Sequence record: MK373786.1
Reading direction: 5' to 3' (one strand)
DNA length: 64,000 nt
Origin: Escherichia phage vB_EcoM_R5505
Under the pieces are notes generated by a model. The model was not told the origin of the DNA and did not search any database. It saw nothing but the letters and a program-made list of their open reading frames with translations. The position numbers and the translations under genes were made by a program. This document shows positions 5,474 to 6,490 of the stretch, in pieces; position 1 is the stretch's first letter, and every line of letters starts with the position of its first letter.

Positions 5474-5549
5474 TGGTCGAGGCAGTAGGGATCGAACCTA
5501 CGACCTAGGACTTAGAAGGTCCTTGCTCTTCCTTCTGAGCTATGCCCCG
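5474..5549 (-). tRNA. tRNA-Arg (anticodon UCU)
   Basis: Manual cloverleaf: acceptor CGGGGCA/TGCCTCG, D-stem GCTC/GAGC, anticodon stem AGGAC/GTCCT with loop CTTCTAA, T-arm GTAGG-TTCGATC-CCTAC, encoded CCA. Confidence 0.85.
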
Positions 5550-5553
5550 TAAT

Positions 5554-5629
5554 TGGGGTGACCGATGGGAGTCGAACCCATGACTACGAGAATCACAATC
5601 TCGAGTTCTACCAACTGAACTACGGCCAC
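5554..5629 (-). tRNA. tRNA-His (anticodon GUG)
   Basis: Cloverleaf: acceptor GTGGCCG/CGGTCAC, D-stem GTTC/GAAC, anticodon stem CGAGA/TCTCG loop TTGTGAT, T-arm ATGGG-TTCGACT-CCCAT, discriminator C, CCA encoded; no encoded G-1. Confidence 0.75.
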
Positions 5630-5743
5630 ATTAATACCTACTCCAACAATCAAGATGTCTTCACACGAAATTAAGAGAAGAGTGATCAGTTCAACCCCTA
5701 TAATCGCGTCAAGTAGATATTAATGTGACAGTTGTCACAAATT

Positions 5744-5818
5744 TGGCGGACGTGATAGGATTCGAACCTATAACCAATCGCTTAACAGGCGATCGCTCTG
5801 CCATTGAGCTACACATCC
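5744..5818 (-). tRNA. tRNA-Asn (anticodon GUU)
   Basis: Cloverleaf: acceptor GGATGTG/CACGTCC, D-stem GCTC/GAGC, anticodon stem ATCGC/GCGAT loop CTGTTAA, T-arm ATAGG-TTCGAAT-CCTAT, CCA encoded. Confidence 0.75.
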
Positions 5819-5822
5819 AAAT

Positions 5823-5909
5823 TGGTGGGGAGTGGTGGAGTCGAACCACCCGAGTCGCAATGACAATGAATTTACAGTCCACACCGCTACCTCTACGGGA
5901 TAACTCCCC
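5823..5909 (-). tRNA. tRNA-Tyr (anticodon GUA), long variable arm
   Basis: Perfect acceptor GGGGAGT/ACTCCCC, T-arm GGTGG-TTCGACT-CCACC, anticodon loop CTGTAAA, ~15-nt variable arm; D-arm pairing imperfect. Confidence 0.6.
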
Positions 5910-5918
5910 AAATTAATT

Positions 5919-5993
5919 TGGTGGCCCTGGGTGGAATTGAACCACCATCTGGCGATTATGAGTCGCTTGCTTGAACCTTCCAGCTACAGGGCC
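5919..5993 (-). tRNA. tRNA with CAU anticodon (Ile2 lysidine type as in T4, or Met)
   Basis: Acceptor GGCCCTG/CAGGGCC, D-stem GCTG/AAGC, anticodon loop CTCATAA, T-arm GGTGG-TTCAATT-CCACC, CCA encoded. Confidence 0.7.
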
Positions 5994-5994
5994 T

Positions 5995-6070
5995 TGGTGC
6001 TGATTGACGGAATCGAACCGCCGACCTTCTCATTACAAGTGAGTTGCTCTACCTACTGAGCTAAATCAGC
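5995..6070 (-). tRNA. tRNA-Thr (anticodon UGU)
   Basis: Acceptor GCTGATT/AATCAGC, D-stem GCTC/GAGC, anticodon loop CTTGTAA, T-arm GGCGG-TTCGATT-CCGTC, CCA encoded. Confidence 0.85.
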
Positions 6071-6075
6071 AAAAC

Positions 6076-6165
6076 TGGCGGAGGCGATAGGATTTGAACC
6101 TATGAGTCGCCGGAGCGACTGCCGGTTTTCAAGACCGGTGCATTAAACCACTCTGCCACGCCTCC
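6076..6165 (-). tRNA. tRNA-Ser (anticodon UGA), long variable arm
   Basis: Acceptor GGAGGCG/CGCCTCC, anticodon stem ACCGG/CCGGT loop CTTGAAA, long variable stem-loop, T-arm ATAGG-TTCAAAT-CCTAT, CCA encoded. Confidence 0.85.
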
Positions 6166-6167
6166 AG

Positions 6168-6241
6168 TCTCCATACAAGGATTTGAACCTTGGACCTCCT
6201 GATCCCAAATCAGGCGCTCTACCAAACTGAGCTACACGGAG
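6168..6241 (-). tRNA. tRNA-Pro (anticodon UGG), CCA not encoded; 2-nt spacer to tRNA-Ser
   Basis: Acceptor CTCCGTG/TATGGAG, D-stem GCTC/GAGC, anticodon stem CCTGA/TCAGG loop TTTGGGA, T-arm CAAGG-TTCAAAT-CCTTG; Pro-Ser dimeric arrangement as in T4. Confidence 0.85.
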
Positions 6242-6251
6242 TAAATTAAAT

Positions 6252-6325
6252 TGGAGCGGATAATGAGAATCGAACTCACATCATCAGATTGGAAGTCTGA
6301 GGTAATACCATTATACGATATCCGC
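6252..6325 (-). tRNA. tRNA-Gly (anticodon UCC)
   Basis: Acceptor GCGGATA/TATCCGC, anticodon stem TCAGA/TCTGA loop CTTCCAA, T-arm GTGAG-TTCGATT-CTCAT, CCA encoded. Confidence 0.8.
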
Positions 6326-6330
6326 AAATT

Positions 6331-6417
6331 TGGTGCGAGAAGTGGGACTCGAACCCACAAGGAAATCATTCCGCAGCATTTTAAGTGCTGTGCCTTTACC
6401 AATTTGACCATTCTCGC
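6331..6417 (-). tRNA. tRNA-Leu (anticodon UAA), long variable arm
   Basis: Acceptor GCGAGAA/TTCTCGC, anticodon stem CAGCA/TGCTG loop CTTAAAA, long variable arm, T-arm GTGGG-TTCGAGT-CCCAC, CCA encoded. Confidence 0.85.
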
Positions 6418-6418
6418 G

Positions 6419-6490
6419 CTGGGAATAAAGGACTCGAACCTTTGCATCTAGCAGTCAAAGTGCTATGCCTTACCAACTTGGCTAATTCCC
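6419..6490 (-). tRNA. tRNA-Gln (anticodon UUG), CCA not encoded; 1-nt spacer to tRNA-Leu
   Basis: Acceptor TGGGAAT/ATTCCCA, D-stem GCC/GGC, anticodon stem TAGCA/TGCTA loop CTTTGAC, T-arm AAAGG-TTCGAGT-CCTTT; Gln-Leu dimeric arrangement as in T4. Confidence 0.85.

Follow-up and report, generated by a model that had tools for sequence, protein, structure and literature searches.

The tRNA operon of a Tequatrovirus carries a tRNA-His gene without G-1 behind a conserved structured leader RNA

The closest described counterparts of the locus studied here are the tRNA regions of phages T4, T2, T6 and T5. In T4, the order is Gln-Leu-Gly-Pro-Ser-Thr-Ile, followed by segB, tRNA-Arg, rnaD and rnaC. T2 lacks tRNA-Thr and tRNA-His, and its genes for tRNA-Asn and for tRNA-Arg lie 4 nt apart; the CAU(Met)/Tyr/Asn/Arg region of T2L, RB1 and RB3 was described in 2008, and the preferred SegB cleavage site of T2L was placed within the tRNA-Asn gene (Brok-Volchanskaya et al., PMC2330249). 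T6, which was compared from Gln to Tyr and then segB, has no tRNA-Pro or tRNA-Ser and, in that part, no tRNA-Asn or tRNA-His; its tRNA-Tyr was seen by northern blot and counters the Septu defence (Chihara et al. 2026, PMC13096335). T5-coded tRNA-His species have also been listed (PMC4810235), and directly 5′ of its tRNA-His gene T5 has RNAIII, a non-tRNA RNA of ~106 nt with a 12-bp helix of its own ends, annotated as a stable RNA with no function assigned.

We analysed a stretch of 64,000 nt (the window), which was 100% identical to Escherichia phage AdolfPortmann (Bas44, MZ501046.1), a phage whose host is given in that record as E. coli K-12. ARAGORN found exactly 11 tRNAs in the whole window, all on the minus strand between 5474 and 6491, in the order Gln UUG, Leu UAA, Gly UCC, Pro UGG, Ser UGA, Thr UGU, CAU, Tyr GUA, Asn GUU, His GUG and Arg UCU. 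A preliminary description, which had folded the same 11 minus-strand tRNAs by hand and proposed ARAGORN as a check, was thereby confirmed in number, anticodons and order. By covariance model, His and Asn were accepted and Tyr was below the threshold: the Rfam tRNA model RF00005 (gathering score, 29 bits) took 10 of the 11 tRNAs with 59-74 bits, and tRNA-Tyr fell under this score with tRNA-Sec as its top clan match (30.9 bits), yet it is identical to the T6 tRNA-Tyr at 87/87 positions. By the annotation of MZ501046.1, T4, T2 and RB18, the cluster is flanked by the ipI/trna.2-4 genes on one side and the e.x genes on the other, and it shares their strand. The region is the tRNA/stable-RNA operon of a Tequatrovirus with minus-strand transcription, and its features are as follows.

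6418-6491, minus strand: tRNA-Gln (UUG); ARAGORN; RF00005, 66 bits; 74/74 identical to T4
6331-6417, minus strand: tRNA-Leu (UAA), CCA encoded; ARAGORN; RF00005; 87/87 to T4
6252-6325, minus strand: tRNA-Gly (UCC), CCA encoded; ARAGORN; RF00005; 74/74 to T4
6167-6241, minus strand: tRNA-Pro (UGG), no full CCA; ARAGORN; RF00005; 75/75 to T4
6076-6165, minus strand: tRNA-Ser (UGA); ARAGORN; RF00005; 87/90 to T4, 90/90 to T2
5995-6070, minus strand: tRNA-Thr (UGU); ARAGORN; RF00005; 73/76 to T4
5919-5993, minus strand: CAU tRNA; ARAGORN; 47/75 to T4 Ile, 75/75 to T2
5823-5909, minus strand: tRNA-Tyr (GUA), class II with long variable arm; ARAGORN; 87/87 to T6, 86/87 to T2
5744-5818, minus strand: tRNA-Asn (GUU); ARAGORN; RF00005, 74 bits; 75/75 to T2
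5630-5743, minus strand: structured leader RNA of tRNA-His; RNAalifold, covariation, covariance model
5554-5629, minus strand: tRNA-His (GUG), 7-bp acceptor stem, C73, CCA encoded; ARAGORN; RF00005, 65 bits
5474-5549, minus strand: tRNA-Arg (UCU); ARAGORN; RF00005; 48/76 to T4, 74/76 to T2
5105-5455, minus strand: 116-aa ORF between tRNA-Arg and the rnaD homologue; phrog_3355 (unknown function)
4989-5105, minus strand: rnaD (species 2) homologue; 89% identity to T4 rnaD over 118 nt
4844-4982, minus strand: rnaC (species 1) homologue; 98.6% identity to T4 rnaC over 139 nt
4770-4793, minus strand: terminator-like hairpin, 10 bp (7 GC), then a T run

The proximal part of the cluster is of the T4 type and occupies the same genomic place and strand as in T4. 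The six genes from Gln to Thr showed 96-100% identity to T4, with Gln, Leu, Gly and Pro identical and Ser and Thr near-identical. The tight Gln-Leu and Pro-Ser pairs, for which a T4-like dimeric arrangement had been claimed, are indeed present: tRNA-Gln stops at its discriminator G with a single C before tRNA-Leu, so its CCA is not fully encoded, and 2 nt (CU) lie between the tRNA-Pro discriminator and tRNA-Ser. The lack of a full encoded CCA in Gln and Pro also held, and both genes are identical to those of T4. On the other hand, the 3′ end of tRNA-Ser encodes CCA in the window and TAA in T4; the CAU tRNA likewise encodes CCA, segB is missing, and Tyr, Asn, the leader and His are additional to T4.

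The distal part was of a different type, as seen in a gene-by-gene comparison with T4, T2 and RB18. In comparison with the T4 annotation, His, Asn and Tyr were missing from the T4 set as the preliminary description had stated, but its view of the remainder as the eight tRNAs of T4 did not stand, since CAU and Arg were only 47/75 and 48/76 identical to T4 Ile and Arg. Judged by sequence, the CAU tRNA is a gene other than the T4 tRNA-Ile, and the tRNA-Arg is an isoacceptor gene other than that of T4. The CAU, Tyr, Asn and Arg genes were 97-100% identical to T2, whereas CAU and Arg showed about 63% identity to T4, and the distal half therefore corresponds to the T2L/RB-type cassette described in 2008. 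The CAU tRNA is most likely tRNA-Ile2, a reader of AUA after lysidine modification; its top E. coli matches were annotated tRNA-Ile genes (81.6% over full length), and the AUA codon was 3.2x enriched in the window ORFs. By the boundaries with T2, the leader and tRNA-His form a module of roughly 194 nt inserted between Asn and Arg, and the Asn-spacer-His-Arg arrangement is common to about 200 related records. The "expanded" arrangement is not new either, as all 11 tRNAs are already annotated in MZ501046.1 and many other records. The 11-tRNA cluster itself and its T2/T6-type tRNAs are known, tRNA-Tyr is a proven Septu counter, and the cluster as such contributes nothing new.

Downstream of tRNA-Arg, rnaD and rnaC follow as in T4, with the difference that the 116-aa ORF splits Arg from rnaD. 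This ORF gave no Pfam match, and an ORF is present at this site in T2 and RB18 and none in T4. The rnaD and rnaC homologues carry no annotation in MZ501046.1. The terminator-like hairpin at 4770..4793 is the probable end of the stable-RNA operon. Host enzymes would presumably process the polycistronic transcript, with RNase P acting at the 5′ ends and RNase E or III in the spacers, and CCA repair would complete the Gln and Pro 3′ ends.

The codon usage of the phage was compared with E. coli reference values; on this basis the codons of the eight T4-type tRNAs were 1.5-5x enriched, those of Tyr and Asn about 1.5x enriched, and His codons were depleted relative to E. coli (ratio about 0.6). The cluster tRNAs may in general top up the host pool for codons over-used by the phage, and tRNA-Tyr, at least, may also replace tRNA destroyed by host defences, as suggested by the identical T6 tRNA-Tyr (PMC13096335). 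Codon demand was rejected as the cause of tRNA-His, because His codons are under-represented and no translational need is evident.

The preliminary description had stated that tRNA-His has C73 and no encoded G-1, and this was correct. The gene reads 5′-GUGGCCG...CGGUCAC-C73-CCA, with T at -1 (window 5630) and A at -2. It thus has the GUG anticodon and C73 of a canonical bacterial tRNA-His, and the encoded G-1 that pairs with C73 in an 8-bp acceptor stem is absent. Reading the 5′ G as G-1 by a register shift is impossible, since U2-A71 fixes the register and one C would otherwise be extra at the 3′ end. E. coli hisR is 80% identical and agrees with it in acceptor nucleotides 1-5, in C73 and CCA and in the anticodon loop UUGUGAU, but in the host gene G-1 pairs with C73, whereas the phage gene has U-1, a G4-U69 wobble and a structured leader. 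The tRNA-His species without G-1 of some alpha-proteobacteria carry A73. The phage gene resembles them in having no G-1, but they co-evolved with a changed HisRS (PMC3064791), whereas the phage tRNA-His has retained C73 and an acceptor stem like that of E. coli and has to rely on a HisRS of the ordinary gamma-proteobacterial kind. The altered discriminator and acceptor that make up the alpha-proteobacterial identity set were not found in it.

This trait was not confined to one phage. T at -1 with C73 and an encoded CCA was obtained in every relative examined; these came from nine genera of Straboviridae and also included two phages of the Vequintavirinae, one mycobacteriophage and T5. The 9 distinct tRNA-His variants of Straboviridae all have T at -1, as do the genes of CR8, Kashira, PSTRCR_121, Yucca and T5, whereas 33 of the 36 other viral genes for tRNA-His have G at -1, as does E. 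coli hisR. Across the 9 variants, the cloverleaf was 97.9% paired and 10 of 21 pairs were compensatory; the first six acceptor pairs, C73, the encoded CCA, the D arm and the anticodon loop were invariant, and the other stems drift with compensation. Such pairing covariation together with an invariant acceptor end and anticodon loop indicates that tRNA-His is under selection. Of roughly 490 close relatives, only about 200 have the leader and His module, which T4, T2 and the T6 region from Gln through Tyr to segB lack. In the literature searched, no paper was found on a phage tRNA-His without G-1, including its charging, and the question of how it is charged, raised in the preliminary description, is legitimate.

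The gap of ~110 nt between Asn and His, which had been described as a spacer, was measured as 114 nt; its size was therefore right, but it is not empty. It is a conserved structured RNA tied to tRNA-His. The elements of the leader are a small 5′ hairpin at 5725-5738, a closing helix of 14 bp in which 5711-5724 pairs with 5630-5643 and which ends exactly at tRNA-His -1, a long hairpin that varies, and a short one (5645-5659) whose 7-nt loop is conserved. The single-sequence fold had a z of -3.5, and RNAalifold gave zero broken pairs in the closing helix across 8 sequences. With 13 variants, 98.9% of the cells of this helix were paired (32-48% in slid controls) and 5 of its 14 pairs were changed on both sides. 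The leader is co-inherited with tRNA-His, and in three more genera a covariance model recovered held-out leader copies lying 5′ of tRNA-His. No Rfam family matched the leader (5630-5743), whether at gathering thresholds or with E values as high as 1, and no second copy turned up elsewhere in the window, nor any copy in the loci of T4, T2 and T6. Covariation between the short-hairpin loop and the tRNA variable/T region, looked for by eye, found no support in the variants.

Several other identities of the spacer were tried and rejected. It is not a decayed tRNA or the tRNA-Gln of Klebsiella-phage annotations, as the homologous stretch starts after that tRNA-Gln and has no tRNA-model match inside. 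A hammerhead-like ribozyme was dismissed, since "CUGAUCA...GAAG" is without the invariant G and is not kept in the CBH8 and Merlin phages, and no Rfam ribozyme matched. A promoter for a leaderless tRNA-His was dismissed as well, there being no minus-strand sigma-70-like site in the spacer; promoter-like matches in the region were at chance (8 found, 7.2 expected), and inspection by eye showed none of the T4 consensus sequences, whether early, middle (MotA box) or late (TATAAATA), at a usable distance in the spacer. We regard it as very improbable that the complementarity of 5630-5743 works as DNA, whether as a promoter, a protein-binding inverted repeat or a recombination/homing site. The helix core is admittedly an AT-rich palindrome, AATATT, and homing endonucleases that cut tRNA-gene 3′ ends shuffle the tRNA cassettes of these phages (PMC2330249). 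However, besides the missing promoter consensus (by eye for the T4 ones), the leader sits within a transcribed tRNA operon, and the G-U pairs tolerated in the helix (UG 7, UA 2 and CG 4 at one pair) fit RNA rather than DNA; in addition, the T5 record lists its analogous element as a stable RNA.

RNAIII resembles the leader in its place and end-closed helix, and the T5 tRNA-His gene likewise has T at -1, C73 and CCA, with a host-like acceptor stem (GUGGCUA). The two RNAs differ in that no sequence or covariance-model homology connects them (53% identity in a forced alignment; covariance model R1, run with E values up to 10, found nothing in the T5 locus), and in that the RNAIII helix stops 2-3 nt before +1, whereas the leader helix reaches -1.

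The explanation that we favour and consider reasonably probable joins a T-even operon, the T2/RB cassette and the leader-His module, with cleavage at -1/+1 giving a weakly charged back-up tRNA-His. For E. coli RNase P to cut at -2/-1, U-2 and pairing of G-1 with C73 are required, and loss of G-1 lowers charging more than 100-fold (PMC5499578). As tRNA-His has U-1, A-2 and no -1:73 pair, ordinary RNase P cleavage at -1/+1 is predicted; by analogy with T5 RNAIII, the cut would free the helix-closed leader as a small stable RNA, and the remaining tRNA-His, with an acceptor stem of 7 bp and without G-1, is expected to be a weak HisRS substrate. The conservation of the acceptor end and anticodon loop argues that tRNA-His is still put to use, probably as a reserve tRNA for histidine and not as a codon adaptation. 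Maturation may differ from this simple prediction, because the RNase P protein selectively binds unstructured 5′ segments (PMC5499578) and a leader paired up to -1 is not the kind preferred by bacterial RNase P. We also observed that the single T-to-G change at -1 was never fixed in any lineage examined, which speaks against the weak-substrate view.

The T5 GenBank record hints at another 5′ end, as its tRNA-His is annotated from U-1 with 78 nt. The mature tRNA-His would then keep U-1 as one additional, unpaired 5′ nucleotide, the stacked leader helix or another nuclease moving the cut to -2/-1 and the 5′ phosphate partly satisfying HisRS. In addition to the T5 start, U-1 and the helix end at -1 show little or no variation from family to family, and according to the identity review the G-1 base chiefly positions the critical 5′-monophosphate and an archaeal HisRS takes A-1 and C-1. 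We nevertheless consider a retained U-1 unlikely: A-2 and U-1 of the window miss the requirements of RNase P for -2/-1 (PMC5499578), and U-1 cannot pair with C73. The mycobacteriophage and two IMG/VR examples have U-1 without the leader helix. T is the most frequent base at -1 in the cluster (7 of 11 tRNAs), and U at -1 is the usual context of canonical RNase P cleavage.

Under-represented His codons, a missing major HisRS determinant and a module dispensable enough to occur in only the above fraction of relatives also fit a tRNA-His that is largely an uncharged decoy or regulator, for example one absorbing a nuclease of GUN-anticodon tRNAs, or a selfish cassette passenger. Tyr, Asn and His are all of the GUN anticodon type, and their anticodon loops presumably match those of the E. 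coli tRNAs. Over-expressed phage tRNA-Tyr is known to shield host tRNA-Tyr partly from Septu (PMC13096335). Such a role for tRNA-His appears quite unlikely to us, as invariant acceptor pairs 1-6, C73 and CCA are the pattern of a synthetase-read tRNA, and the T5 tRNA-His with an altered anticodon is, by the note of its record, an effective amber suppressor and hence aminoacylated in vivo; moreover, no tRNA-His-targeting defence system was found in the literature covered.

Post-transcriptional addition of G-1 by a Thg1-like 3′-5′ polymerase of phage or host seems extremely improbable. To our knowledge, E. coli has no Thg1 or Thg1-like protein. Archaeal Thg1 does template G-1 addition on C73 (PMC9508852). 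A tRNA-processing enzyme in the flanking ORFs was rejected, since the 3 ORFs scanned in this one 64-kb window gave no Pfam match and belong to PHROG families of unknown function; furthermore, the trait occurs in unrelated phages (T4-like, T5, V5-like and a mycobacteriophage), each of which would need the enzyme.

A wider reading, which we offer tentatively and find rather doubtful, is that enterobacterial phages (T4-like, V5-like and T5) and some mycobacteriophages share a dedicated class of G-1-less tRNA-His; in the enterobacterial phages a new class of sRNA leader would control 5′ maturation, and the tRNA would be charged independently of G-1 or would have a nuclease/defence-resistant or decoy role.

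The possible importance of the locus lies in the tRNA-His module and not in the cluster. G-1 is described as a major, nearly universal HisRS identity element, and here a conserved and selected phage tRNA-His lineage never encodes it; these phages with a U-1 tRNA-His infect hosts with ordinary HisRS, and a folded leader accompanies the gene. The real 5′ end and charging state of this tRNA would reveal either that bacterial HisRS or RNase P has an unrecognised tolerance or that a phage tRNA serves outside translation, and they would also open a first way to the "stable RNAs of unknown function" long known in the T5 and T4 tRNA operons.

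ARAGORN was run on the whole 64-kb window, and eleven tRNA genes were found at 5474-6491, all on the minus strand, in agreement with the preliminary description in order and in every anticodon. Ten of them passed the Rfam general tRNA model (threshold 29 bits) with scores of 59-74 bits. The eleventh, tRNA-Tyr (5823-5909), stayed below the Rfam tRNA gathering score, with tRNA-Sec as its top clan match (30.9 bits), and this sub-threshold score is the probable reason for the name "tRNA-OTHER" in a few GenBank records. Its fold is class II, with a D stem of 3 bp and an anticodon stem that contains two G-U pairs, and it is identical to T6 tRNA-Tyr (87/87), a tRNA that has been seen by northern blot, is reported to be rather unstable in vivo and, if over-expressed, protects T6 against the Septu defence (PMC13096335). 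The tight Gln-Leu and Pro-Ser pairs were likewise confirmed, the first member of each being without a full CCA. CCA is encoded by tRNA-Ser (6076-6165) and the CAU tRNA (5919-5993), whereas the T4 Ser and Ile genes have TAA and TAT there; nine of the eleven phage tRNAs thus need no CCA addition.

Escherichia phage AdolfPortmann (Bas44, MZ501046.1, genus Tequatrovirus) matches the window at 100% identity, its record annotates all eleven tRNAs, and the Asn-spacer-His-Arg junction was present at an identity of at least 95% in about 200 phage records, including RB18 and Sf21; the expanded cluster was therefore already known. Its make-up is not that of the eight T4 tRNAs with three additions, as had been proposed. 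The Gln, Leu, Gly and Pro tRNAs are identical to those of T4, and Ser and Thr nearly so, but the CAU and Arg tRNAs match the T4 Ile and Arg genes at only 47/75 and 48/76 positions, in contrast to 75/75 and 74/76 for T2. This distal Met(CAU)-Tyr-Asn-Arg cassette had been reported in 2008 from T2L, RB1 and RB3, and the site that the T4 homing endonuclease SegB prefers lies in its tRNA-Asn (PMC2330249); two of the three supposedly extra tRNAs, Tyr and Asn, are previously described and studied. The best E. coli matches of the CAU tRNA were annotated tRNA-Ile (81.6%), and it is most likely an AUA-reading tRNA-Ile2. T2 is without the approximately 194 nt, comprising the leader and tRNA-His, that the window has between Asn and Arg.

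The following features flank the cluster:

4770-4793, minus strand, strong terminator-like hairpin of 10 bp with 7 GC and a T run behind it, about 50 nt past the rnaC homologue
4844-4982, minus strand, rnaC homologue, 98.6% to the T4 stable RNA rnaC
4989-5105, minus strand, rnaD homologue, 89% to the T4 stable RNA rnaD
5105-5455, minus strand, 116-aa ORF, phrog_3355, function unknown, lying between tRNA-Arg and the rnaD homologue, whose start it abuts or overlaps
6578-7093, minus strand, 171-aa ORF, phrog_2290, function unknown, directly upstream of tRNA-Gln

At its 3′ side the stable-RNA operon probably finishes with this terminator-like hairpin. Both stable-RNA homologues are unannotated in the AdolfPortmann GenBank record and are without an Rfam family. 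No Pfam match was obtained for the 116-aa ORF, which is common to the window, T2 and RB18, whereas in T4 tRNA-Arg adjoins rnaD directly. The 171-aa ORF is present in T2 and RB18 but not in T4, where trna.2 adjoins the cluster.

As had been reported, tRNA-His (GUGGCCG...CGGUCAC-C73-CCA) is without an encoded G-1 and has T at this position, where E. coli hisR has G. T at -1 was found in 9/9 distinct variants of this tRNA-His from nine Straboviridae genera (Tequatrovirus, Jiaodavirus, Karamvirus, Gelderlandvirus, Winklervirus, Moonvirus, Kanagawavirus, a KPV15-type phage and Gualtarvirus), and also in two Vequintavirinae phages, one mycobacteriophage and the unrelated tRNA-His of T5. In a control set, a loose-pattern sample of viral contigs, G stood at -1 in 33 of 36 distinct tRNA-His genes (17 of 20 where the contig had at least five tRNAs); phages, too, thus normally encode G-1. 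Its absence from this tRNA-His is genuine, and far more widely spread than had been suspected. The gene is under selection: in the nine variants, pairing was seen in 97.9% of cloverleaf cells and two-sided changes in 10 of 21 pairs, whereas acceptor pairs one to six, the D arm, the anticodon loop, C73 and CCA were invariant. A T4-like copy (IMG/VR_UViG_2706796299_000001) has the T loop UUAGAAU, G37 at normally invariant sites and two broken pairs, and may be decaying. T at -1 with C73 but no leader hairpin was observed in Mycobacterium phage Yucca (202-275), whose tRNA-His lineage is matched by about 160 mycobacteriophage records, and in two IMG/VR sequences (L090 and L073); in these three, tRNA-His lies 1-6 nt from the preceding tRNA.

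The stretch between tRNA-Asn and tRNA-His, measured at 114 nt (5630-5743; previously put at about 110 nt), is not a plain spacer but a structured RNA tied to tRNA-His, with which it is kept together in other genera, there after tRNA-Gln rather than tRNA-Asn. RNAalifold on eight sequences gave a 14-bp helix (5711-5724 / 5630-5643) with 0 broken pairs, the final pair of which includes position -1, and the single-sequence fold was better than 200/200 shuffles (z = -3.5). Among 13 distinct variants 98.9% of helix cells were paired, with two-sided changes in 5 of 14 pairs, while registers slid by 1-3 nt paired at only 32-48%. That 5630-5743 acts instead as a DNA-level element is considered very unlikely. 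In Kanagawavirus the whole leader has shrunk to a bare hairpin of the closing helix, with compensatory changes, and CR8 (Vequintavirinae) has an 82-nt leader with the same helix type made of different base pairs. Held-out leader copies were recovered by a covariance model built without them, each immediately 5′ of tRNA-His: at E = 6e-5 for Moonvirus, E = 0.005 for Gualtarvirus and E = 0.04 for Kanagawavirus. The model gave no hit at the T4, T2 and T6 loci, nor a second leader within the window. The Rfam search of the leader gave no family match, and this structure appears to be undescribed for T4-like phages. Just 5′ of the closing helix, UGUCAC (5725-5730, minus strand), common to the window, Karamvirus and Gelderlandvirus, repeats the sequence of the 3′ acceptor strand of tRNA-His. 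It is able to pair with G1-C5, lengthening the helix to about 19-20 bp, and this pairing is the minimum-free-energy fold of leader plus tRNA; such a structure might be another fold of the precursor, or a substrate for an RNase III-type enzyme.

The closest known thing to this leader is the 106-nt "RNAIII" of T5, annotated as a stable RNA of unknown functions, which directly precedes the tRNA-His gene (the pair lies in NC_005859, 8207-8390) and whose two ends form a 12-bp helix. No homology to RNAIII was detected with the leader covariance model, and we thus term it an analogue. T occupies position -1 of T5 tRNA-His, and in the T5 record the annotated gene begins with that T. According to a note in the same record, this tRNA with a changed anticodon is an effective amber suppressor, on which rests the view that it is aminoacylated in vivo; that the window tRNA-His is a decoy or regulator is considered rather improbable. 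T5-coded tRNA-His species are also given in a review table (PMC4810235).

The special -2/-1 site is used by E. coli RNase P only where U-2 and a G-1:C73 pair are both present, and HisRS charging falls more than 100-fold once G-1 is lost (PMC5499578). As the window has A-2 and U-1, the cut is expected at the usual +1 position, which would produce a tRNA-His that lacks its main identity element. Most likely, precursor transcripts of the operon are processed by host RNases; canonical RNase P cleavage would free the leader, closed by its helix, as a small RNA, and leave a G-1-less tRNA-His that HisRS would charge inefficiently. Pairing of the leader right up to the cleavage site is expected to be disfavoured by RNase P, and a mature tRNA-His that retains U-1 is possible, if unlikely. 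U-1 was never replaced by G in the tRNA-His relatives examined, and a Thg1-type addition of G seems scarcely plausible.

The phage tRNAs may supplement the host pool for over-used codons: in the window ORFs the eight T4-type codons were enriched 1.5-5x, and Tyr and Asn codons about 1.5x, relative to E. coli values. His codons came to 13.3 per thousand in 62 window ORFs and are thus rarer than in E. coli (about 22.6 per thousand), so that codon demand does not explain tRNA-His. At least tRNA-Tyr may replenish tRNA destroyed by defences such as Septu (PMC13096335). While the cluster itself is known and annotated, we found no paper on a phage tRNA-His without G-1 in our literature search.
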